DNA of 9,484 bases from a virus (Duplodnaviria > Heunggongvirae > Uroviricota > Caudoviricetes): positions 1 to 9,484 of the IMG/VR virus record IMGVR_UViG_2531839207_000025; one strand, written 5' to 3'. Below the pieces are notes generated by a model. That model was not told the origin of the DNA, searched no databases, and saw only the letters and a program-made list of their open reading frames with translations. The position numbers and the translations under genes were made by a program. Below, in pieces: positions 1 to 9,484 of the stretch. Every line of letters starts with the position of its first letter. Position 1 is the first letter of the stretch.

Positions 1-282
1 ATGGTAGATTGCAGCCACGGTAATTCCAATAAAGATTATCGCCGTCAGCCTGCGGTGGCAGAATCCGTGGTTGCTCAAATCAAAGATGGCAATCGCTCAA
101 TTATTGGTCTGATGATCGAAAGTAATATCCACGAGGGCAATCAGTCTTCTGAGCAACCGCGCAGTGAAATGAAATACGGTGTATCCGTAACCGATGCCTG
201 CATTAGCTGGGAAATGACCGATGCCTTGCTGCGTGAAATTCATCAGGATCTGAACGGGCAGCTGACGGCTCGCGTGGCTTAA
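1..282 (+). CDS. aroF: DAHP synthase, tyrosine-sensitive; C-terminal 93 codons only (gene starts upstream of the window)
   Basis: Open frame from window start to a stop at 280-282; the translation matches my memory of the E. coli AroF C-terminus; tyrA follows 10 bp downstream as in the aroF-tyrA operon. Confidence 0.9.
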
Positions 283-292
283 GAGGTTTATT

Positions 293-1414
293 ATGGTTGC
301 TGAATTGACCGCATTACGCGATCAAATTGATGAAGTCGATAAAGCGCTGCTGAATTTATTAGCGAAGCGTCTGGAACTGGTTGCTGAAGTGGGCGAGGTG
401 AAAAGCCGCTTTGGACTGCCTATTTATGTTCCGGAGCGCGAGGCATCTATGTTGGCCTCGCGTCGTGCAGAGGCGGAAGCTCTGGGTGTACCGCCAGATC
501 TGATTGAGGATGTTTTGCGTCGGGTGATGCGTGAATCTTACTCCAGTGAAAACGACAAAGGATTTAAAACACTTTGTCCGTCACTGCGTCCGGTGGTTAT
601 CGTCGGCGGTGGCGGTCAGATGGGACGCCTGTTCGAGAAGATGCTGACACTATCGGGTTATCAGGTGCGGATTCTGGAGCAACATGACTGGGATCGAGCG
701 GCTGATATTGTTGCCGATGCCGGAATGGTGATTGTTAGTGTGCCAATCCACGTTACTGAGCAAGTTATCGGCAAATTACCGCCTTTACCGAAAGATTGTA
801 TTCTGGTTGATCTGGCATCAGTGAAAAATGGACCATTACAGGCCATGCTGGCGGCGCACGATGGCCCGGTACTGGGGTTACACCCGATGTTCGGCCCGGA
901 CAGCGGTAGCCTGGCAAAGCAAGTTGTGGTCTGGTGTGATGGACGTAAGCCGGAAGCATACCAATGGTTTCTGGAGCAAATTCAGGTCTGGGGCGCTCGG
1001 CTGCATCGTATTAGCGCTGTCGAGCACGATCAGAATATGGCGTTTATTCAGGCTCTGCGCCACTTTGCTACTTTTGCTTATGGGCTGCATCTGGCAGAAG
1101 AAAATGTTCAGCTTGAGCAACTTCTGGCGCTCTCTTCGCCGATTTACCGCCTTGAGCTGGCGATGGTCGGGCGACTGTTTGCTCAGGATCCGCAGCTTTA
1201 TGCCGACATTATTATGTCGTCAGAGCGTAATCTGGCGTTAATCAAACGTTACTATAAGCGTTTCGGCGAGGCGATTGAGTTGCTGGAGCAGGGCGATAAG
1301 CAGGCGTTTATTGACAGTTTCCGCAAGGTGGAGCACTGGTTCGGCGATTACGCACAGCGTTTTCAGAGTGAAAGCCGCGTGTTATTGCGTCAGGCGAATG
1401 ACAACCGCCAGTAA
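293..1414 (+). CDS. tyrA: Bifunctional chorismate mutase / prephenate dehydrogenase (T-protein)
   Basis: ATG at 293 preceded by aagagg; 373 aa; translation begins [26 protein letters not shown] and contains the GGGGQMG dinucleotide-binding motif; length and sequence match E. coli TyrA as I recall it. Confidence 0.95.
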
Positions 1415-1421
1415 TAATCCA

Positions 1422-1449
1422 GTGCCGGATGATTCACATCATCCGGCAC
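1422..1449. terminator. Hairpin between the convergent tyrA and pheA 3' ends; likely bidirectional terminator
   Basis: Inverted repeat gtgccggatga / tcatccggcac lies 8 bp after the tyrA stop and 8 bp from the pheA stop; T-rich on the plus side (cttttc), A/T-rich on the other. Confidence 0.5.
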
Positions 1450-1456
1450 CTTTTCA

Positions 1457-2617
1457 TCAGGTTGGATCAACAGGCACTACGTTCTCACTTGGGTAACAGC
1501 CCAATACCTTCATTGAACGGGTAATTTCCCCTAACTCTTTCAATGCTTTTTGCATTTCCGCTGATTCAAGATTGGCCTGAATATCCAGATAAAACATCTC
1601 TTCCCATGGATTACCGTGAATCGGGCGTGATTCCAGACGGGTCATAATCAGATTGTGGTTGCGCAGCACCAGCAACGCTTCAACCAGCGCACCGGCTTGT
1701 TGCCCGGTCGCCATTAACAACGTCGTTTTCGCCGGAACCTGGTCAGACACGTTAATGGCTTTACGTGCCAACACCACAAATCGGGTGAAGTTTTGTTGCT
1801 GATTCGCTTCAATACGCTCCAGTACCTGCAAACCGTACAAAGTGCCGCCAGCTTCGCTTCCCAACGCAGCAACATGCGGTGATTTTGCCTGTGCAACCTT
1901 TTCCATTGCCGCAGACGTACTTTCGGTATATTCAATCTTCCAGTGAGGATAACGATTAAGGAATTTGCTGCATTGCTGGAATGGCTGCGGATGGCTGTAG
2001 ACCGTATTAATAGTGGATAAATCAGTCGTGCCGGAGACCAACAAACAATGGTCGATAGTTAACGTCATCTCGCCAACAATCGACAAGCTGGTATGTTGCA
2101 GCAGATCGTAAACGTCGTTTATGGCACCGGAGCTGGTATTTTCAATCGGTACGACGGCATAGTCGGCCTGGCCGGTTTCCACCTGATTAAAAATATCGGC
2201 AAATTTGGCGCAGCCACTTTCAATGAATTGCTCAAAGTGACGGGCAGCATACTGGCGCGCCGCAAGATGGGAATAAGAACCTTTGGGGCCGAGAAAAGCG
2301 ATGCGTGCTGAGTGCGGATTAATTTTATTGAGATGTTGCTGGAGCAAAGCCTGCTGAGTTAATACGGAATCTTCAATGATGAGCTGGAACAGGCGAGTAA
2401 TGTAATGGGCGTCCAGATGGTGCGCTTTACCGAGCGTAATTAATCTTTCCAGTAAATCGCGTTCACGATCAATATCTCGTACCGGGCGATGCGAGAGCAG
2501 TTTGGCTTTTCCTACCTCGACGGCCAATTCGCGCCGCTCTGCCAGTAATGCTAATAATTTTTCATCCAGCGCGCTGATTTTCTCTCGCAGCGCCAGTAAC
2601 GGGTTTTCCGATGTCAT
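1457..2617 (-). CDS. pheA: Bifunctional chorismate mutase / prephenate dehydratase (P-protein)
   Basis: 386-aa minus-strand ORF starting [32 protein letters not shown]; ATG is the complement of cat at 2615-2617; matches E. coli PheA in length and sequence as I recall it; sits downstream of pheL and the attenuator. Confidence 0.95.
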
Positions 2618-2637
2618 AGTGTTGCCTTTTTGTTATC

Positions 2638-2668
2638 AATAAAAAAGGCCCCCCGATTTGGGAGGCCT
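2638..2668 (-). terminator. pheA attenuator (leader terminator)
   Basis: On the minus strand: GGCCUCCC-AAAUC-GGGGGGCC hairpin (8-bp GC-rich stem with one G-U) followed by UUUUUUAUU, between pheL and pheA. Confidence 0.8.
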
Positions 2669-2715
2669 TATTGTTCGTCTTCGCATTCTGTTTCACACGA
2701 CGAAACGCCTCCCAT

Positions 2716-2763
2716 TCAGGGGAAGGTAAAAAAGAATGCGAAGAAAAACGGTGTGTGTTTCAT
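2716..2763 (-). CDS. pheL: pheA leader peptide, 15 aa: [15 protein letters not shown]
   Basis: Minus-strand reading ATG AAA CAC ACA CCG TTT TTC TTC GCA TTC TTT TTT ACC TTC CCC TGA; seven Phe codons in 15; it is under the track length cutoff, so not listed there. The K-12 peptide I recall has Ile at position 4 (here Thr, ACA). Confidence 0.9.
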   Translation of the reverse strand: [15 protein letters not shown]

Positions 2764-2788
2764 GTTTGTTTCCTTAAGTGACTTTAGT

Positions 2789-2818
2789 ACAGTACCCGTA
2801 CTGTTTTCACGCTGTCAA
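2789..2818 (-). promoter_or_regulatory. pheL-pheA promoter (-35 TTGACA, candidate -10 TACTGT)
   Basis: Minus-strand TTGACA (plus 2813-2818), 18-nt spacer, then TACTGT (plus 2789-2794), about 25 nt upstream of the pheL ATG; the -10 assignment is by eye. Confidence 0.5.
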
Positions 2819-2819
2819 C

Positions 2820-2843
2820 AAAAAACGCGCCCGAAGGTGCGTT
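2820..2843 (-). terminator. Intrinsic terminator just upstream of the pheL promoter (minus-strand direction)
   Basis: Minus-strand ACGCACCUUCGGGCGCG hairpin followed by UUUUUU; placed to stop transcripts arriving from the integrase side. Confidence 0.45.
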
Positions 2844-2846
2844 GTA

Positions 2847-2930
2847 AAACCCACTGAATTCAATGTTTTCCCTTTGTTTTCAGTGGGTTTTGTTATTGGT
2901 GGGGGTTACTGATTACCCTATAAAACCCAC
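2847..2930. repeat. Repeat-rich junction between the chromosomal locus and the integrase stop; candidate attachment region or Int arm sites
   Basis: aaaacccactgaa (2847-2859) and its inverted copy ttcagtgggtttt (2881-2893) form a 13-bp-arm inverted repeat; a third aaaacccact copy at 2921-2930 ends right before the int stop codon. Confidence 0.3.
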
Positions 2931-3920
2931 TTATGTGGATGAAATGTGGATGCCTCCTTTTAACGGATTAAGTGAAATTGCATCCTGGAGGAAATCAGGA
3001 GCGAGGTGCGCATAGGTCATAGTTTGCTGGATCGTGGCGTGCCCCATAATTCGCTGGAGCGTAAGTATATTTCCTCCATTAATCATAAAGTGAGCAGCAA
3101 AGGTATGGCGTAGAACATGTACAGCCTGTCCTTTTGGTAGGTCTGGCTTAACACTGCGAAGCACCTTGCGATATTCCTCATAATTGACGTCAAACAAAAG
3201 GCCGGATTTCTTTGTTTTGATCTCACTAACAACTTCATCAGAGACAGGAATAATTCGAACTTTTCCGTTTTTAGTTTTGTTAAACGTCACGCGATTATTG
3301 ATGATGTGTTCCGCGCGTAGATTTTTCGCTTCTCCCCATCTCGCCCCAGTACTGAGACAAAGTAGCGTAATCCGCCGGGCATCACCGTTTACTGCATCCA
3401 GCAATTTGGCGATTTCTTCCGTAGTGAGGTACGTCATTTCGGGTGATTTTCGTTTCAAAGAGGGGAGGGCGCGGAGTGGATTTTCTCCGTGAAATTCTCC
3501 GGCATTTGCCAGAAGTGTAAACATTCCTCCGAGATCCGACTCATCACGCCGAACAGTAGACTCTTTTACTCCCAAAGATAAACGGGAGCTTCGATAAGCG
3601 GCCATGAAACGAGCATTAATCTGGCTAACCCTTGGATCATTCATTTCTTTGATGATTTTTTTCAACCTGGTTAGAACGCCGTTAGCATATGGCTTATTGC
3701 GTCCACCCAATTCCCACCATAACGGAAGCAGATCTGAGAGATGACGTTGCTCTGTTGGCTTTTCAAGCCATTCCTTATCGTGCATGTGGCTGAGAACATA
3801 ACGCTCAAAGGCCACTGCATCTGCCTTTTTCTTAAAAATCCGCTGAATCCGACGTCCACTTCGGCCACGCGGTCTAACATCCACTTTATACCGTCCACCA
3901 TCGAGCGCTTTAATTGCCAT
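2931..3920 (-). CDS. int: Phage integrase, tyrosine recombinase, P2 Int-like
   Basis: Minus-strand ORF; preferred start at 3920 (MAIKALDGGRYKVDVRPRGR, ggaggg RBS 9 nt upstream) rather than the track start at 3953; C-terminal motifs ILCLSTGARWGEA, HVLRHTFAAHFMINGG, LQRIMGH and YAHLAP fit the tyrosine recombinase R..H-x-x-R..Y pattern; strong resemblance to P2 Int as I recall it. Confidence 0.9.
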   Translation of the reverse strand: MAIKALDGGRYKVDVRPRGRSGRRIQRIFKKKADAVAFERYVLSHMHDKEWLEKPTEQRHLSDLLPLWWELGGRNKPYANGVLTRLKKIIKEMNDPRVSQINARFMAAYRSSRLSLGVKESTVRRDESDLGGMFTLLANAGEFHGENPLRALPSLKRKSPEMTYLTTEEIAKLLDAVNGDARRITLLCLSTGARWGEAKNLRAEHIINNRVTFNKTKNGKVRIIPVSDEVVSEIKTKKSGLLFDVNYEEYRKVLRSVKPDLPKGQAVHVLRHTFAAHFMINGGNILTLQRIMGHATIQQTMTYAHLAPDFLQDAISLNPLKGGIHISST

Positions 3921-3986
3921 TGGCAAGCCCTCCGGTGAAACGAGGAAAGACATTTCCAGTTTGTAAAACGTAAGAATAATAAAGGG

Positions 3987-4289
3987 TTAACCAATTTTCC
4001 TTTCGGATGGGGGTAAGTCCGTTGGCTCTTGCCCATAGTGTGCGAGAGCCGGAGCTATCTGCCCGGATTCAGGCGCAATTTTTCCAGTCATAAACCACAA
4101 CGCATATTTCTCAAATCTGGGGTTGTTTAGTATTTGCTCAATTACTTCAGCATTAGGGATAGTTTTACCGCTTTCATATCTCCACAGAGCATCACGGTTT
4201 AAACCAAGCATTTTTGCTGTATCCGGGAGGCTAGTAAGTCTCTCGCTTTCACGCATGATTTTTATGCGCTCTCCAATAGTCATACGCAT
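3987..4289 (-). CDS. Immunity repressor, P2 C-like (HTH)
   Basis: Translation MRMTIGERIKIMRESERLTSL...WFMTGKIAPESGQIAPALAHYGQ closely resembles P2 C as I recall it; the track start at 4304 is a TTG codon, so I prefer the ATG at 4289 (ggaga 8 nt upstream) or 4283; sits upstream of int on the same strand as in P2. Confidence 0.85.
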   Translation of the reverse strand: MRMTIGERIKIMRESERLTSLPDTAKMLGLNRDALWRYESGKTIPNAEVIEQILNNPRFEKYALWFMTGKIAPESGQIAPALAHYGQEPTDLPPSERKIG

Positions 4290-4384
4290 GTTGCAATTCT
4301 CCAACGTCTGTATTAATGTTTATACAAATGAGTTTGATTTGGGGCATCCGTCGCAAGAAATACCCCAAACAGGGAGATTATCAC
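4290..4384. promoter_or_regulatory. Divergent immunity switch region between the repressor and cox-like genes
   Basis: 95-bp spacer between divergent starts; contains tgTATTAAt and TTGATT promoter-like hexamers and the inverted repeat tttgggg(4339-4345)...ccccaaa(4363-4369); individual promoters and operators not resolved. Confidence 0.45.
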
Positions 4385-4711
4385 ATGAATGAAGAACTAT
4401 TGAGGGCATTGTTTAAGATCCCAGACCCCATCACCGTCGATGAGTTTTCCCGCCGCACAGGTAAGACCGAATCAGCCGTAAGAAAGTTGGTAGAGCGTCG
4501 ACTCATCCCTCTAACTACTGAGCGCGAGGTTTTAGGCGAGGAAGGGAGTTCGCGCCGTCTTCTCATCCTTTGGAATGAGTGGCTCGAAATGGTCTATGAC
4601 GCAACGAAACAACTTCCTCCTGAGCGTAAAGATTGGCGCAATCACTGGCTTAAGAAAGCCAAGAAGCTGGCGGAAGATTTGGGATTAGGCTTTCTTAATT
4701 TTGCTGCATGA
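4385..4711 (+). CDS. Cox/Apl-like excisionase-regulator (small HTH protein)
   Basis: ATG at 4385 with gggag 9 nt upstream; 108 aa; segment VDEFSRRTGKTESAVRKLVERRLIP resembles the P2 Cox DNA-binding region as I recall it; divergent from the repressor gene. Confidence 0.65.
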   Translation: MNEELLRALFKIPDPITVDEFSRRTGKTESAVRKLVERRLIPLTTEREVLGEEGSSRRLLILWNEWLEMVYDATKQLPPERKDWRNHWLKKAKKLAEDLGLGFLNFAA

Positions 4712-4729
4712 GATGCAGGGAGTTTTGAT

Positions 4730-5071
4730 ATGAAACAGCAACGTAATTCACGCTTTCGTAATGGTGCTGAACGCCACGCTAACCGTTTCGCTACCAGTGC
4801 ATCGCGTAGCAACTCTCGCTACAGCCTGAGCGAAACACACGCAACGCCGGATGGCTACCCAGTAAAACAAATCGGCGAGCACGCCTGGTTGATTGAGAAA
4901 GCTGGAATCGTGGTCCACAAATGCCCACGCAACCCATTTACCGGAAACCGCATTTTTGCACTGAGCAACGGCGACAATCAGTTCGGGCAGGATTTCACAT
5001 TATACGAAGCACTTCGCACGGTTGATCGTCTGCTTCGCGGGCAAAGTTTTATTAAACAGGCTGATTTATAA
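4730..5071 (+). CDS. Hypothetical early protein, 113 aa, basic Ser/Arg-rich N-terminus
   Basis: ATG at 4730 with agggag 8 nt upstream, 18 bp after the cox-like stop; I do not recognise the protein. Confidence 0.6.
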   Translation: MKQQRNSRFRNGAERHANRFATSASRSNSRYSLSETHATPDGYPVKQIGEHAWLIEKAGIVVHKCPRNPFTGNRIFALSNGDNQFGQDFTLYEALRTVDRLLRGQSFIKQADL

Positions 5072-5081
5072 CAGGTGCTTT

Positions 5082-5360
5082 ATGACCAAAGAGCATGCAC
5101 AAGGTGTATTTATCCGTTTTATTGATTTTCGCGGTGAACTGTTATTACGCGCATCAGCCATTGACGGAGTTGTTCCATCAGAAAAAAACGCAGCTACTTA
5201 CGTTTATCTGAACGGTACGCGCCTGACTGTGGAGCTTCCGTACCAGACCGTACGAGAAATCATTAGCGAAGCTGAAAAGGCACGTCAGGTTAATGGCGAT
5301 GAACCCTATATCGAAATTATTTGTATGGATTCAGAAGCTGAAATTCAGAAAGCAGATTAA
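5082..5360 (+). CDS. Hypothetical early protein, 92 aa
   Basis: Preferred start ATG at 5082 (aggtg 7 nt upstream), in frame with the track ORF 5022-5360 but not overlapping the upstream gene. Confidence 0.55.
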   Translation: MTKEHAQGVFIRFIDFRGELLLRASAIDGVVPSEKNAATYVYLNGTRLTVELPYQTVREIISEAEKARQVNGDEPYIEIICMDSEAEIQKAD

Positions 5361-5371
5361 AGGGCGTTGCG

Positions 5372-5614
5372 ATGGGCAAAGAATATAAAACTCTCATTAA
5401 CAAAGCACTTGAGCGTTTTTATTTTCGCTTAAGTGCATCAGGCGCTCATGCTGAACGTGCAGCCCGTGACTCATTGACCAGGGCAATCCGGAGTTTGTAT
5501 GACGTCGCTTTTTACGCTGATGATCTGGATGCACTTAACGAACTTTCCGAGCTGATCTGTGCCGCAGAATGCGGGGAACATATTGAACCGTATAAGCTGG
5601 GGAATATCGCATGA
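5372..5614 (+). CDS. Hypothetical early protein, 80 aa
   Basis: ATG at 5372, 11 bp after the previous stop; tightly packed in the same orientation. Confidence 0.5.
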   Translation: MGKEYKTLINKALERFYFRLSASGAHAERAARDSLTRAIRSLYDVAFYADDLDALNELSELICAAECGEHIEPYKLGNIA

Positions 5615-5724
5615 GTATATTTATCTCATGGCTTGTTCTGATGATTTCGGTGGCCTGCGCCATTGGAATTATGCGAATTATTCATTCAGTAAAAAAGATT
5701 GAACGTTTTTTCACTGGTGAATAA
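5611..5724 (+). CDS. Small hydrophobic protein, 37 aa: MSIFISWLVLMISVACAIGIMRIIHSVKKIERFFTGE; one predicted transmembrane helix
   Basis: Its ATG overlaps the upstream TGA (ATGA at 5611-5614); not in the ORF track because of the length cutoff; hydrophobic core followed by a basic tail. Confidence 0.35.
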   Translation: MSIFISWLVLMISVACAIGIMRIIHSVKKIERFFTGE

Positions 5725-5817
5725 CGATACAAATAAAACATCAAATTAAATAAGAAAACGTGAAAACCATCCGTATTAACGGAGGTATTCGCACACGCAA
5801 ATAACGGAGATACAAAA

Positions 5818-6228
5818 ATGCACGCAAAAGAAGAAGGTATCATCAGAGCACTGAAAGAAATTTCAAAGATTGAAAGCGAAGTAGCGAAAAAAGCCGTAGC
5901 AAATGCTCATATAGACGTCGCTACCCACGCAATGATAGTCGCAAAAGTCACGGCAGAAGCCGCCAAAATCATCGAAGAACAGGGTGCGGAACTTACGCTT
6001 TTCAAAACTCAACCAGTCACCGGACTGGATTTATCTAACACCGGACGCCTTATTTACACAATTGGCTCGGAGCTACAGCGATACACCATTATCGCCGGAT
6101 TACAGGGCAAATACCTGATCACTCCTCACCCCATAAGGGAATCAGAAATTCTGACAAATCTCCGCCTGATAGATCGCTCTCAAGTTGCATTCATTGATGA
6201 CGCACAGCACACCGTATTTAACGCATAG
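5818..6228 (+). CDS. Hypothetical protein, 136 aa
   Basis: ATG at 5818 with ggaga 7 nt upstream; preceded by a 93-bp AT-rich spacer; I do not recognise the protein. Confidence 0.6.
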   Translation: MHAKEEGIIRALKEISKIESEVAKKAVANAHIDVATHAMIVAKVTAEAAKIIEEQGAELTLFKTQPVTGLDLSNTGRLIYTIGSELQRYTIIAGLQGKYLITPHPIRESEILTNLRLIDRSQVAFIDDAQHTVFNA

Positions 6229-6255
6229 GGTTATTGGACAAAAAAAGGGGGGGCA

Positions 6256-6459
6256 ATGGCAATTAAGCATTTTCCCGTCGTTCGCTTTACCTCCAGAGGG
6301 CGCGAATACGAGGTCGACGAACGCCTGATTACCACTATCGACAAACATCGTTCGGAAAAGGATGCACACCACATCTACCTCACTGACGGCACTTACTTCT
6401 GCGCCACTAATGTGGCGCGGGTAAACCTTATCCGACAGGTACAGGAGCATCGTAAATGA
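6256..6459 (+). CDS. Hypothetical protein, 67 aa; first gene of a four-gene translationally coupled module
   Basis: ATG at 6256 immediately after an A7-G7 tract that serves as the RBS; its stop overlaps the next start (ATGA). Confidence 0.55.
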   Translation: MAIKHFPVVRFTSRGREYEVDERLITTIDKHRSEKDAHHIYLTDGTYFCATNVARVNLIRQVQEHRK

Positions 6460-6674
6460 GCAGAAAGCGAATCACACGCAGGCATCGCCGCACACACATG
6501 AATTCCTTACCGACGCTGAAAGAACTCATTCAACACGAGATCGCTGATTTCTGCGCACCGCTGGGGTCGCCTGGCGAACCGGAAACGCCAGAAGCGATGC
6601 AGCGCGAACTCATGATGCGCATCGATAACGTTTTTGACTTTTTCCTGAATAACAAAAGAGAGCAATCAACATGA
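6456..6674 (+). CDS. Hypothetical protein, 72 aa, strongly basic N-terminus (SRKRITRRHRRTH)
   Basis: ATGA overlaps at both ends (6456-6459 and 6671-6674). Confidence 0.55.
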   Translation: MSRKRITRRHRRTHMNSLPTLKELIQHEIADFCAPLGSPGEPETPEAMQRELMMRIDNVFDFFLNNKREQST

Positions 6675-6874
6675 ACAAAAAGACCTGGTTTCGCGCATAT
6701 ATGTGGGCGCTGGTATGCGTCCTCGTCTCTCTCATTCTGTATGCAGGACTACTCCCCCGAATGATTTCATCAGACAGCTCCTTCCTGGTATTGCTGGGCA
6801 TTTTCATTGCCATGCTGTACCCGGCAGGCGTTGTTCGCCTTTTCAGTAAGTACATCAAGGAAATCAAACAATGA
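6671..6874 (+). CDS. Small integral membrane protein, 67 aa, two predicted TM helices
   Basis: Hydrophobic stretches WALVCVLVSLILYAGLL and FLVLLGIFIAMLYPAGVV; ATGA overlaps with both neighbours. Confidence 0.6.
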   Translation: MNKKTWFRAYMWALVCVLVSLILYAGLLPRMISSDSSFLVLLGIFIAMLYPAGVVRLFSKYIKEIKQ

Positions 6875-7701
6875 AGAAATTCAAACTCTTTCAGATTCTC
6901 CCGCTTTTTGCCGCCATCCTGCTGGTTGGCTGCGATCGCGTTGAGCCAGGTAATGTGGGCATCAAAGTCAACAAGCTGGGCGACGACAAAGGCGTTGGCG
7001 AAGTGGTTGGCGTTGGCCGCTACTGGACTGGCTGGAATACCGAGGTTTACATCTTCCCGACCTTCAAACAAATGAAGACCTACGATGACCCGTTCAGCTT
7101 CCAGATGAGTGACGGCACAACCATCGGCTATCACATCGGCGTGGCCTACAAGGTCGATCCATCCAAAGTTACCACAGTGTTTCAGACCTACCGCAAAGGC
7201 GTGGACGACATTACCGACACTGACCTGCGCCAGAAGATCGCCGACGCACTCAACCGACTGGCCAGCAAAATGACCACAGATAAATTCATCGACGGTGGCA
7301 AGTCTGAACTGCTGGATTCAGCACTTAAAGATATTCAGGAAGAGATGACCCCCATCGGCATTCAGGTCATGAGCCTCTCTTATGTCGGTAAACCGGAATA
7401 TCCGCCAACCGTTATCGACAGCATTAACGCCAAAGTCACGGCAAACCAGAAAACCCTGCAACGCGAACAGGAAGTCAAGCAACGCGAAGCAGAAGCCAAC
7501 ATGTTGCGCGCAGAAGCTGCCGGACAGGCTGATGCCATTCGCACAAAAGCCCAGGCTGAAGCCGACGCCATTCGTTTACGCGGTGAAGCTCTGCGCCAGA
7601 ATCCCGGCGTTATGGAGCTGGAAGCAATCAACAAATGGAACGGCACGCTACCGCAATACATGACCAGCAATACCGCTGTTCCGTTTGTTCCGGTGAAGTA
7701 A
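6871..7701 (+). CDS. Lipoprotein with SPFH/Band-7 (stomatin/prohibitin/HflKC-like) domain, 276 aa
   Basis: N-terminus MKKFKLFQILPLFAAILLVGC has a lipobox (LVGC); the body, with a long Ala/Glu/Arg-rich predicted helix (REQEVKQREAEANMLRAEAAGQADAIRTKAQAEADAIRLRGEA), resembles SPFH-family organisation; assigned from sequence pattern, not a search. Confidence 0.75.
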   Translation: MKKFKLFQILPLFAAILLVGCDRVEPGNVGIKVNKLGDDKGVGEVVGVGRYWTGWNTEVYIFPTFKQMKTYDDPFSFQMSDGTTIGYHIGVAYKVDPSKVTTVFQTYRKGVDDITDTDLRQKIADALNRLASKMTTDKFIDGGKSELLDSALKDIQEEMTPIGIQVMSLSYVGKPEYPPTVIDSINAKVTANQKTLQREQEVKQREAEANMLRAEAAGQADAIRTKAQAEADAIRLRGEALRQNPGVMELEAINKWNGTLPQYMTSNTAVPFVPVK

Positions 7702-7707
7702 TTAAAC

Positions 7708-7732
7708 CCGGCCAGTGAAAACCGCTGGCCGG
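7708..7732 (+). terminator. GC-rich hairpin 7 bp after the SPFH gene stop; possible terminator or RNA-stability element
   Basis: ccggccag / ctggccgg 8-bp stem with a 9-nt loop; the nearest T-run (atttttt, 7745-7751) is 12 nt downstream, so not a canonical intrinsic terminator. Confidence 0.3.
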
Positions 7733-7869
7733 AGCAGTATCAGGATTTTTTAGTATGCCGTTCTCACAAAAAAACCGCTTGCCATGCCGCAATCAGTCAG
7801 GTTACATTTCCGCTGCACCTCATAAAACGGGTGCCGGGTTTCGCAGCCTGCTGACTACAAGAGCGCACA

Positions 7870-7889
7870 ACCGCGCCAGCGGTTTTTTT
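7870..7889 (+). terminator. Candidate intrinsic terminator inside the ORF-free spacer
   Basis: accgc-gcca-gcggt short hairpin immediately followed by seven T; a second T7 run at 7910-7916 has only a weak stem before it. Confidence 0.35.
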
Positions 7890-7930
7890 GTGCGTACTGT
7901 ATTGCCACGTTTTTTTCGCGTCAGAATTAT

Positions 7931-8006
7931 GGCGGGGCGTACGGGGCCGACTTCGGTCGGGCCGGGATCTCTTGTAGCCGGTACTGCGAACCTCGTACGT
8001 CTCGCC
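7931..8006 (+). ncRNA. Candidate structured RNA element, 76 nt, family unknown
   Basis: 13-bp closing stem ggcggggcgtacg (7931-7943) / cgtacgtctcgcc (7994-8006) with two G-U pairs that would be A-C mismatches on the opposite strand; internal hairpin GGGCCGAC-UUCG-GUCGGGCC (7944-7963); in an ORF-free spacer. Confidence 0.25.
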
Positions 8007-8068
8007 ACCCACAGTTTCGCAGCTCTGGATGGTGAGTTTTCACAACTTACTACAAGAGGCCACATATC

Positions 8069-8299
8069 ATGGCAAACCGCAAACAGCACCGCGCTATCGC
8101 GGAGCGTCGTCACATCCAGACTGAAATCAACCACAGACTTTCCCGCGCATCACGCGTCGCGCAAATCATGCACATCAATATGCTGCATGAGCGCAGCCAC
8201 GCACTATCAAACATTTATTCCGCCTCTGTTTTCAGCTATCTGGCGGATGATCTGCACGAGCTTCAACAGCTCATCCAGCAGCAAAACAAACTCCATTAA
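8069..8299 (+). CDS. Hypothetical protein, 76 aa
   Basis: ATG at 8069 with aagagg 9 nt upstream; ordinary amino acid composition, unlike the overlapping 206-codon frame. Confidence 0.5.
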   Translation: MANRKQHRAIAERRHIQTEINHRLSRASRVAQIMHINMLHERSHALSNIYSASVFSYLADDLHELQQLIQQQNKLH

Positions 8300-8371
8300 T
8301 TCCTGTTCCGGGCCTTTCCTGCACCTTGCGGCGGGAGGCCTTCGCACATCTGTAACAAGAGGATTGCCGCA

Positions 8372-8737
8372 ATGATTCTCGCCAACGACTTTCTTGAATA
8401 CCTGCTCAACACAGAACGTGATCTTGCCGCTCGCGTGCGTGATCGTTATGACATGTACCTGAAATCCCTGCCTGTACCGCAGCTCGCTGACGGAAAGATT
8501 GTTATTGATGGTCGCTACATGATTGACAGCCACGAGGGAAATTACAGGCTTTACCGCATTGAAGGTGGCACCCAGTCCGTTATTGGCATTTACCAGCGCC
8601 CATCCTCTGCAATCGTCGATGTGATTGCCGACAGCATCCGCATCACACATCGCCATGCCGACACAGAAGACACCGTGCTGGAAATTCAGCGGCTGGCTAC
8701 AGTCTGCCGCGACACCCTGAATGGCATGACGAAGTAA
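8372..8737 (+). CDS. Hypothetical protein, 121 aa
   Basis: ATG at 8372 with aagagg 9 nt upstream; directly precedes the large downstream gene. Confidence 0.6.
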   Translation: MILANDFLEYLLNTERDLAARVRDRYDMYLKSLPVPQLADGKIVIDGRYMIDSHEGNYRLYRIEGGTQSVIGIYQRPSSAIVDVIADSIRITHRHADTEDTVLEIQRLATVCRDTLNGMTK

Positions 8738-8743
8738 ATCACT

Positions 8744-9484
8744 ATGACGGCAGAGTACATCAGGGACTGGCAACAACCGCGCCACGCAGTGGGGCGTGAA
8801 GGAACGGGGATCCCCGCTCCTGAATCCGCGCTTTCCTCCTGGCTGGATGCCTACCGGGTAGAGAACGAGCGCCGCCAGGAAATGGCTGATGCGGCGTTCT
8901 CCGCCACGCCGCTGGGCAACCTGATTAATAAAAGCCTGGACGCACAGGAAAAACAGGACAAAACCATCACACTGGCAGGAGACGCCAGAAAACAGGCACG
9001 CGGCGCGGTGGATGAAGCCATGGCCTCGCTGCGCCTGCTGCCGTCCTATCTGCGCGATCCGCTTATTCGCCACCTCTCCTTCCTGCGCAAAAAACAGGAA
9101 GCCGATCGCCGGAAAGGCAAAAAGAGCTGGCAGGCGGAACGCTATGCACGCGGAACCCTGCGCAAAATATTCGAACGTCTGGATAGCACTGACGGACGCT
9201 GGCTGACACCGGGTTATCGCTCCCTTGCCGGACGCGAACGCCTGGACGATTTGCTTTACCTGCCGCAGCTCAACAAACACCAGATACAGACGCTGGCCAC
9301 CATGACGGCGGCGATGTTCAGCAGCACCTTCGAAAAACTCTGCGATGGCTTTGGCGCGACCGATGGCGAGCTGACCATGGATGTAACCCTGAAGGCGTAT
9401 CAGATGCTGGCCCGCATGGCGTTACACCTGCACGCCATGCCTCCACATTATGACGCACTGACAACAGACAAAGACCGGAGGAAC
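8744..9484 (+). CDS. 5' part of a large gene, open to the window end; possibly a P2 gpA-like replication initiation endonuclease
   Basis: ATG at 8744, 6 bp after the previous stop, in frame with no stop for 247 codons to the window end (missing from the track because it has no stop); the position after int-C-cox and small early ORFs corresponds to gene A in P2-like phages; sequence resemblance to gpA is from weak memory. Confidence 0.55.
   Translation, partial: MTAEYIRDWQQPRHAVGREGTGIPAPESALSSWLDAYRVENERRQEMADAAFSATPLGNLINKSLDAQEKQDKTITLAGDARKQARGAVDEAMASLRLLPSYLRDPLIRHLSFLRKKQEADRRKGKKSWQAERYARGTLRKIFERLDSTDGRWLTPGYRSLAGRERLDDLLYLPQLNKHQIQTLATMTAAMFSSTFEKLCDGFGATDGELTMDVTLKAYQMLARMALHLHAMPPHYDALTTDKDRRN

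Follow-up and report, generated by a model that had tools for sequence, protein, structure and literature searches.

The window analysed here is a stretch of 9,484 nucleotides (positions 1 to 9,484 of the IMG/VR virus record IMGVR_UViG_2531839207_000025), in which host genes are followed by genes of a phage:

1-282, plus strand: aroF', host gene.
293-1414, plus strand: tyrA, host gene.
1457-2617, minus strand: pheA, host gene.
2639-2764, minus strand: Phe leader (host DNA), consisting of the pheL coding sequence at 2716-2763 and the attenuator (Rfam Phe_leader, 132 bits).
2813-2818, minus strand: -35 hexamer TTGACA of the pheL/pheA promoter, recognised from the sequence and identical in prophage-free K-12.
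2931-3920, minus strand: int, a P2-type tyrosine integrase of 329 aa from the annotated start (RefSeq WP_000974887.1).
3987-4289, minus strand: C-type immunity repressor of the HTH kind (Pfam HTH_31 and HTH_3; PHROG 147).
4385-4711, plus strand: Cox homologue of 108 aa, divergent from C (Pfam, PHROG and pairwise alignment).

The assignment of the Phe leader and pheL is supported by the RefSeq annotation of the corresponding locus of strain E2855, where identity to the window is 100%. The int reading frame is open to 3953 and ends in a TAA stop codon at 2931-2933 (minus strand). Its product matches Pfam Int_N and Phage_integrase, shares 54% of its residues with P2 Int along all 329 aa (E 3e-136) and aligns with it at the N-terminus (MAIKALDGGRYKVDVRP here, MAIKKLDDGRYEVDIRP in P2) as a P2-type arm-binding domain. 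The product of the divergent gene shows 28% identity with P2 Cox (E 3e-9 in a pairwise alignment), matches PHROG 272 (E 2e-4) and scores 25.3 bits with Pfam Phage_Cox, just under the cut-off of 27.5 bits; presumably, it acts both as the excision directionality factor and as a repressor of Pc. From the cox homologue onward, the early genes up to the end of the window are P88/Xuanwuvirus-like.

A sequence-only reading of this DNA had proposed that a prophage ends here in the interval between raiA and pheL, and a megablast search of positions 2600-3000 against 5426 complete E. coli genomes bears this out. Positions 2600-2844 are present in all 5426 genomes, and positions 2845-3000 in only 125 of them, the near and far prophage arms being found in the same 125. 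The raiA-pheL site is uninterrupted in 5273 genomes and split in 153. In strain E2855 the prophage is located between intact raiA and pheL; thus, the element sits in the interval, as had been suggested, but a replacement, the other option that had been left open, does not hold for raiA, which is intact at the far end, 37.8 kb away. The int stop codon is 113 bp from the pheL -35 hexamer, close to the earlier estimate of about 110 bp. As had also been noted, no tRNA gene lies near the junction, and neither tRNA nor tmRNA genes were found anywhere in the window. A tRNA/tmRNA-targeting integrase of the 186 type was considered and rejected because such genes are absent from the window and the arm repeats are P2-type rather than tgccGCCActt. 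P2-type integrases are known to target non-tRNA, mostly intergenic, sites (PMC3448106).

The core was defined by a three-way comparison of the empty site attB (L001) with the near and far junctions. The K-12-type attB reads ...GTCAAC-AAAAAACGCGCCCGAAGGCGCGTTG-GCGATACACTCAATATAAAGGA and continues into the raiA stop codon, and the far prophage end of E2855 reads ...GCTTTAC-AAAAAACGCGCCCGAAGGCGCGTTG-GCGATACACT. The following features were placed in this way:

2818-2844, minus strand: att core of the BOP' type (attL), a hybrid copy of the raiA intrinsic terminator (three-way junction comparison).
2833-2837, no strand assigned: GAAGG, the strand-exchange segment, limited on the left by off-site insertions and on the right by the phage-specific T at 2838.

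Both prophage ends carry the segment 2818-2844, a repeat of 27 bp whose copies differ at one position. E2855 has exactly two such copies, at a distance of 37,755 bp from each other, and the 5273 genomes with an uninterrupted site have a single one. In K-12 it is the raiA intrinsic terminator, with a stem of 8 bp, a loop of 4 nt and a T6 tract, located about 23 nt past the raiA stop codon. In the window the stem is formed by 2824-2831 and 2836-2843, the loop CGAA at 2832-2835 is read as UUCG on the transcribed minus strand, and the minus-strand T-run occupies 2820-2825 (an A-run on the plus strand). Thus, the phage has the raiA terminator hairpin as its att core, and the presence of a copy at each prophage end leaves raiA with a perfect terminator. 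The alignment with the prophage-free raiA-pheL region, which had been recommended as a check, placed both the junction and the core at 2818-2844. The earlier proposal that AAAACCCACT forms the att core fails, as no copy of this decamer exists at the far end; the repeat that was expected there is present in the form of the terminator copy. Window positions 2818-2952 are the int-proximal junction (BOP', attL) of a 37.8-kb prophage of the P2 family (Peduoviridae) inserted in the raiA terminator.

The point of strand exchange was narrowed down from natural junctions. Position 2838 is T in 8 of 8 aligned lysogens and C in both attB and the raiA-side copy. Since the T is found only in the pheL-side copy, it is phage-derived, and the exchange took place to its left. 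The left limit comes from off-site insertions of the same phage. On plasmid pCREC455-3 the two junctions read ...CTCCAA-GAAGG-TGCGTTGTAAAACCC and ...CGCGCCC-GAAGG-AGCATTGACTC, so that GAAGG alone is duplicated at both, bordered by target or phage bases. The phage sequence of the IMG/VR contig L071 borders on phage-plasmid DNA natively carrying ACAAACGCTCAGAAGGTGCG, which is consistent with a crossover in GAAGG. Strand exchange is therefore confined to GAAGG, the terminator loop plus the first stem bases, and the terminator stem arms presumably serve as inverted core-type Int sites. A second P2-type integrase, 57.5% identical and found in 6 genomes, recombines at this core as well, and T is again left at the position of 2838. 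One match on a 129-kb plasmid, at first taken as a candidate episomal attP, proved to be an off-site insertion into a tail-fibre gene. The excised attP was absent from INPHARED phage records and from IMG/VR and JGI metagenome contigs, so the T assigned to attP derives from the junctions only; the attP of the excision circle is expected to read ...GCTTTAC-AAAAAACGCGCCCGAAGGTGCGTTG-TAAAACCC....

Sites for the integrase on the prophage arms could be recognised by a repeat search and by the consensus of P2-type arm sites, tgTGGaCa (PMC3448106):

2933-2952, plus strand: putative Int arm-type sites P'1 and P'2, two copies of ATGTGGATG 11 bp apart, in the last codons of int.

The distal (P) arm carries GATGTGGAC and TTGTGGATG. 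The four repeats, gaTGTGGACag and ttTGTGGATgt in P and taTGTGGATga and aaTGTGGATgc in P', have one orientation and a spacing of 11 bp. Measured from the core start, the P arm TGTGGA motifs of the reconstructed attP lie at -59 and -48, the positions that they have in P2; measured from the core end, those of the P' arm lie at +90 and +101 (P2: +88 and +99). The distance from the first P to the first P' site is 175 bp here and 174 bp in P2. In the P2 reference record (NC_001895), the annotated P' arm and the 3' end of int likewise overlap. The stretch that separates the P arm sites from the core contains an IHF-like sequence, AAACAATTTGTTA, with 1 mismatch to WATCAANNNNTTR; P2 has its IHF site at the corresponding place. 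Judging by consensus and spacing, the Int arm-type sites are most probably these TGTGGA direct repeats, two over the int 3' end and two in the distal arm. The match of TGTGGA to the consensus tgTGGaCa and the P2-like spacing on both arms argue against AAAACCCACT as an arm site, a role suggested for it previously that now appears unlikely. Taken together, the assignments of the junction, the core and the arm sites are regarded as nearly certain.

Between the core and the P' arm sites lies an interval of 86 bp with a conspicuous set of repeats:

2846-2858, plus strand: box A, AAAACCCACT followed by GAA, the core-proximal arm of an inverted repeat (motif and repeat search, shuffles).
2859-2878, no strand assigned: A/T-rich spacer of the inverted repeat, containing TTCAATG (CATTGAA in the int sense; comparison of P' arms).
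2879-2891, minus strand: box B, inverted AAAACCCACT followed by GAA, the second arm of the inverted repeat (motif and repeat search).
2899-2908, minus strand: box C, a degenerate copy TAACCCCCAC matching at 8 of 10 positions (from the sequence; absent from the earlier reading).
2922-2931, plus strand: box D, the third exact AAAACCCACT, overlapping the int stop codon by one base (motif and repeat search).

The three copies of AAAACCCACT and the inverted repeat that had been read from the sequence were found exactly as described. The decamer is present at 2846-2855 (plus), 2882-2891 (minus) and 2922-2931 (plus), the last copy abutting int, and the arms 2846-2858 and 2879-2891 are perfect over 13 bp and can be extended to 18-nt arms with 89% complementarity. 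Allowing at most one mismatch, AAAACCCACT has 4 matches in the window against 0.59 expected, a number reached in 0 of 200 shuffles. When the interval is shuffled with its dinucleotide composition kept, a perfect inverted repeat of such length appears about once in 1000 trials. There is also an 11-nt direct repeat, TAAAACCCACT, at 2845-2855 and 2921-2931. Boxes A-D form two inverted pairs with spacings of 36, 17 and 23 bp. No further exact copies of AAAACCCACT were found in the 46-kb locus of E2855 that holds the whole 37.8-kb prophage. A natural variant of box B (AGCGGG) occurs in EC556 and L034, and box C sits in a family-conserved block, GGTTAA..ACCCCA, the G-run of which differs in length among lysogens. 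The lysogens differ from each other by 0-3 positions in 95 bp, which makes them too alike to reveal constraint on the boxes.

More distant comparison was possible with the P' intervals of relatives having integrases 58-70% identical to the one studied: prophages of Klebsiella, Raoultella, Symbiopectobacterium/Sodalis, Providencia, Xenorhabdus and Chania, and IMG/VR contigs, of which L034, L042, L066, L071-L076 and L079 were informative for the arm, most others ending exactly at the int stop codon. The sequence CATCCACATTnnATCCA at the int 3' end is kept in all relatives checked, and the block GGTTAA..ACCCCA in all relatives compared. A hairpin resembling a terminator closes their P' regions at a distance of about 105-110 bp from the arm sites, and the spacing from core to arm is conserved whatever the sequence in between. 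A significant perfect inverted repeat of 8-13 bp adjoins the core in 10 of 12 lineages, P2 included, the exceptions being L066 and L073; its sequence differs among lineages, and its position is conserved. The Fisher combined probability over the 12 lineages is 7e-10, a value inflated by relatedness. In P2 the repeat has 18-nt arms with 83% complementarity and falls within the annotated Cox region. The closest phage record, 3LV2017 (Int 64% and Cox 68.5% identical), has an inverted-repeat arm AACCCCATGA about 80% like AACCCACTGA. Since the inverted repeat recurs by position across lineages, that of the window may be seen as the local version of a conserved architectural element rather than as an oddity.

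In position, 2845-2931 corresponds to the stretch of P2 that is annotated as a Cox site; P2 Cox acts both at the switch promoter Pc and at attP (PMC3936717). We therefore propose, on the grounds of position, the P2 precedent and co-inheritance with cox, that the P' arm may have its accessory-factor region in this 86-bp interval and that the Cox homologue of the phage (4385-4711) may nucleate on boxes A-D. By bending attL, it would then permit Int-mediated excision and block re-integration. The designation of boxes A-D as candidate Cox boxes for excision control, which comes from analogy with P2, is a tentative one, to which we give slightly less than even odds. The explanation as a whole, a P2-type prophage junction in the raiA terminator including the accessory-region and Cox-box reading, is given a probability of about 0.55.

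If Cox boxes they are, they differ from those of P2. The P2 array is defined by TTAAA(G/C)NC(A/C) in at least 6 copies phased at 10-11 bp, at attP as well as at Pe/Pc, and a periodicity of 10-11 bp has been reported for the P2 cox-boxes (PMC3936717). In the window TAAAACCCA matches this consensus at 8 of 9 positions, yet the consensus hits the window 22 times against 26 expected, and equating TAAAACCCA with the P2 box TGAAAGCCC reverses the orientation of the pair relative to P2. AAAACCCACT was also tried as an operator of the Pe/Pc switch and rejected: 4290-4384 holds no copy even with mismatches, and the sharing of k-mers between the arm and the switch region is at the level of chance. In view of the consensus hitting at chance rate, the spacings of 36, 17 and 23 bp and the lack of copies in 4290-4384, the boxes are not P2 cox-boxes as defined, but may be the cognate boxes of a Cox that is 28% identical to that of P2. 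In relatives, the P' arm shares an 8-mer of the ATACCCCA type with the switch region, in which TTTGGGGTAT..TACCCCA makes up an inverted repeat. On the other hand, L007 and L066 have, by eye, apparently the same core and near-identical switch regions with a different inverted repeat, which argues against strict sequence-specific recognition.

Another explanation could be that the interval works as RNA, its hairpins, located in the 3' untranslated part of the C-int transcript, serving to terminate or stabilise this transcript or to target it for processing in a manner similar to the sib retroregulation of lambda. Read in the int sense, 2812-2935 folds at -39.3 kcal/mol (z = -4.6), and the hairpin of the inverted repeat alone at -20.4 kcal/mol (z = -5.1), ending in UUUU and standing before a weakened hybrid terminator (-9.0 against -14.4 kcal/mol for the perfect copy). 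Conservation of a repeat in position and not in sequence is the pattern expected of structure, and the variant in EC556 and L034 retains pairing as G.U, which is possible only on the int-sense strand. However, the folding shows no int-sense bias over the 12 lineages (the mean favours the antisense strand by +2.4 kcal/mol, the sense strand being better in 5 of 12), and this favours a function at the level of DNA. In addition, the U-tract after the hairpin is missing in most relatives, the stem requires a 20-nt loop, the equivalent P2 DNA is annotated as a Cox-binding site, and no Rfam family was found in 2800-2960, where the sole match, SpF19, had 29 bits against a cut-off of 60. A role as RNA is thus considered unlikely.

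A broader reading, of the same low probability in our judgement, links the core and the repeat: the P2-type integrases of this group (58-70% identical; Escherichia, Klebsiella, Raoultella, Symbiopectobacterium/Sodalis, Providencia and Xenorhabdus) may form a clade specialised to recombine in Rho-independent terminator hairpins, with the stem arms as inverted core sites and the loop as the crossover. The second, position-conserved inverted repeat could then be a cruciform, a DNA hairpin recognised by its shape or an RNA element of the int 3' end instead of a set of Cox boxes.

The interval might also bind IHF or another bending protein of the host, like the H' site of lambda, and the repeated motif would be a by-product of symmetry around the bend. 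By eye, YAANNNNTTGATW, the IHF consensus on the reverse strand, is perfect at the homologous place in L072, L074, L011, L073 and L081; others have 1-2 mismatches, and the consensus overlaps one arm of the inverted repeat. In several relatives, where an arm coincides with a perfect consensus, IHF rather than Cox may be the main binder. In the window, however, both candidate positions have 2-3 mismatches by eye, and the only match with at most 1 mismatch in a formal scan is in the distal P arm, as in P2. The spacer TTCAATG takes the position of the IHF consensus of relatives, but with at least 2 mismatches to WATCAANNNNTTR by eye it is treated as a lead. Since IHF binding also leaves unexplained the exact identity of three copies over 10-13 bp and the copy at the int stop codon, we think it quite unlikely as the function of the motif.

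Finally, the repeats might be functionless, a leftover duplication or palindrome in a non-coding spacer of which only the length is needed. Such a view is in line with the two lineages that have no significant inverted repeat (L066 and L073), with the point variants in boxes A and B among lysogens and with a core-to-arm distance that is kept irrespective of sequence; it is made very unlikely by the joint occurrence of a perfect 13-bp inverted repeat and a third exact 10-mer (p about 0.001 or less) and by the inverted repeat at the same position in 10 of 12 lineages, among them P2, where it is protein-bound. The original suggestion that the AAAACCCACT copies are the att core or Int arm-type sites is extremely improbable in spite of three exact copies in the interval, of which one abuts the core and one int, and a loose 7/10 likeness to the core half-sites ACAACGCACC and AAAACGCGCC by eye, because no copy exists in the other arm or elsewhere in the prophage to make it a duplicated core, arm sites are needed on both arms, and TGTGGA, not AAAACCCACT, is kept in every relative.

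The insertion leaves the host with two unequal terminators. The far-end (raiA-side) copy is perfect (-14.4 kcal/mol), and termination of raiA should therefore be unchanged, as far as folding energies predict. The pheL-side hybrid (-9.0 kcal/mol) has an A.C mismatch at one stem position on the transcribed minus strand, and the hairpin 2824-2843 was absent from the output of a simple terminator scan. A terminator separating C-int from the pheL promoter had been proposed from the sequence; it is indeed placed there and oriented against int-sense transcripts, but what stands there is raiA's own terminator, restored in hybrid form, that is, the junction itself, and neither new nor separate. It is preceded by the -20.4 kcal/mol hairpin of the inverted repeat. 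In the broader and improbable reading given above, the weakened hybrid could also let C-int transcripts reach pheL-pheA in this lysogen; any effect on pheA, as suggested in the earlier reading, would have to arise from such read-through. The -35 hexamer of the pheL promoter abuts the T-run of the terminator core, and the host sequence is unchanged from about -56 downstream relative to the pheL start (an estimate that puts 2818 at about -36). Thus, the phage avoids damage to its site, leaving raiA with a perfect terminator and the pheL promoter with native upstream DNA to about -56.

No description of a raiA/yfiA-pheL integration site was found in the literature searched, though one may still have been published, and the locus is not among the P2-like integration sites listed in PMC3448106. 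INPHARED phage records gave no nucleotide match over 2800-4750, the best protein identity of the int/att module being 64%. The mechanism is that of a standard P2-type site, at a chromosomal position for which we found no description. The analysis assigns a precisely defined attB, the raiA terminator, to a prophage that recurs in E. coli (in 125 of 5426 complete genomes, a second integrase type being present in 6 more), maps its crossover to 5 bp from natural junctions alone, and corrects the assignment of the core and arm sites from the AAAACCCACT repeats to the terminator and the TGTGGA repeats. This may be of use in prophage annotation, in curing or engineering, and as an additional orthogonal P2-type Int/att pair.

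Since the layout is that of P2, it will hardly surprise a specialist. The P2 record (NC_001895) gives the order ogr terminator, Int P arm, IHF, attP core, Cox (74 bp) and Int P' arm over the int 3' end. Common to both phages are a terminator, two TGTGG repeats in the P arm, an IHF-like site, the core, about 87-89 bp with an inverted repeat, and two P' repeats over the int 3' end, with spacings that agree within 1-2 bp, as well as the gene order int-C-cox and an intergenic, non-tRNA target. P2 differs in its locI core, AAAAAATAAGCCCGTGTAAGGGAGATT, which is not a raiA terminator sequence, and in its boxes, TTAAA(G/C)NC(A/C), which are replaced here by the AAAACCCAC type with another spacing and orientation. 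The remainder of the present phage is P88/Xuanwuvirus-like, with parM and hok, and not P2-like. In the Klebsiella phage 3LV2017 (Reginaelenavirus), too, an intrinsic-terminator hairpin (AAACCCGGAGCACTCCGGGTT) is annotated as attL/attR, and the P' arm resembles that of the window in having two CATCCAC sequences, an ACCCC box and an inverted repeat (CCCCATGA/TCATGGGG) adjoining the core; however, its host is another one, its terminator and therefore its attB are different, and it has no third exact copy at the int stop codon. With the attP of lambda (C-O-C') the present site shares a heterobivalent integrase, arm sites and accessory sites for bending proteins, which in lambda are the IHF H sites and the Xis/Fis sites. 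In lambda, however, the P arm holds the Xis sites, and sib is found past attP; in the present phage the accessory region separates the core from int and remains joined to int in the prophage. As in the common habit of phages to duplicate the 3' end of their target, the interrupted host element is restored, in this case a terminator instead of the 3' end of a tRNA gene.

The raiA-pheL site is split in 153 of 5426 E. coli genomes, and two integrase types account for 125 and 6 of these split sites, so that about 22 remain. The second is also a P2-type integrase, 57.5% identical to the first, and has the same raiA-terminator core; it is found in E. coli 1604D011 (locus L081, 2990-4119) and in five other genomes, and at the position equivalent to window 2838 it too leaves a T. 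There are two ATGGAC arm sites in its P' arm, the int-proximal arm of the attachment site, along with an inverted repeat of 8 bp (CGCTTCTT/AAGAAGCG) and a perfect IHF consensus.

The same phage as in the window is also inserted off-site, within a tail-fibre gene of the 129-kb plasmid pCREC455-3 (NZ_CP183151.1; loci L003, L004 and L089, positions 1-34400). The target, GAAGGAGCATTG, is similar to the core's right half, GAAGGTGCGTTG, and the duplication at the two junctions consists of GAAGG only. In the IMG/VR record UViG_2531839662_000010 (L071, 3135-5460), the core is where this int arm meets DNA of 48-57-kb plasmids (their ParB/methyltransferase region), which natively have ACAAACGCTCAGAAGGTGCG; this join is either a second insertion at a secondary site or a chimeric contig.

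Among the lysogens, the stretch between the core and the int stop varies. The G-run of the degenerate box C (window 2901-2905) ranges from 5 to 7 G, box A has the point variant AAACCCCACT in TW10828, box B reads AGCGGG in EC556 and L034, and a G to A variant occurs at window 2865. The int reading frame itself (window 2931-3953) continues without a stop for 11 codons upstream beyond its annotated start (3920); since P2 Int aligns with it from the annotated Met onwards, the real protein is probably the shorter form.

The Pe/Pc switch (window 4336-4375), between the C repressor and the cox-like gene, contains an inverted pair, TTTGGGGCAT and ATACCCCAAA, that is kept in relatives. A 14-mer of the switch, ACCCCAAACAGGGA (window 4362-4375), recurs exactly within the P' arm of a Sodalis-like relative (L009, 994-1007), which hints that one protein may recognise both places.

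Outside the window, several tail genes of the E2855 prophage (L002) are annotated as pseudogenes. This prophage also encodes (L002 5089-6802 and 32732-34007) a Com-family regulator and a DNA methyltransferase, both adjoining the raiA-side junction, as well as a Hok/Gef toxin and a ParM-type partition module, a cargo that is unusual for a P2-type phage.
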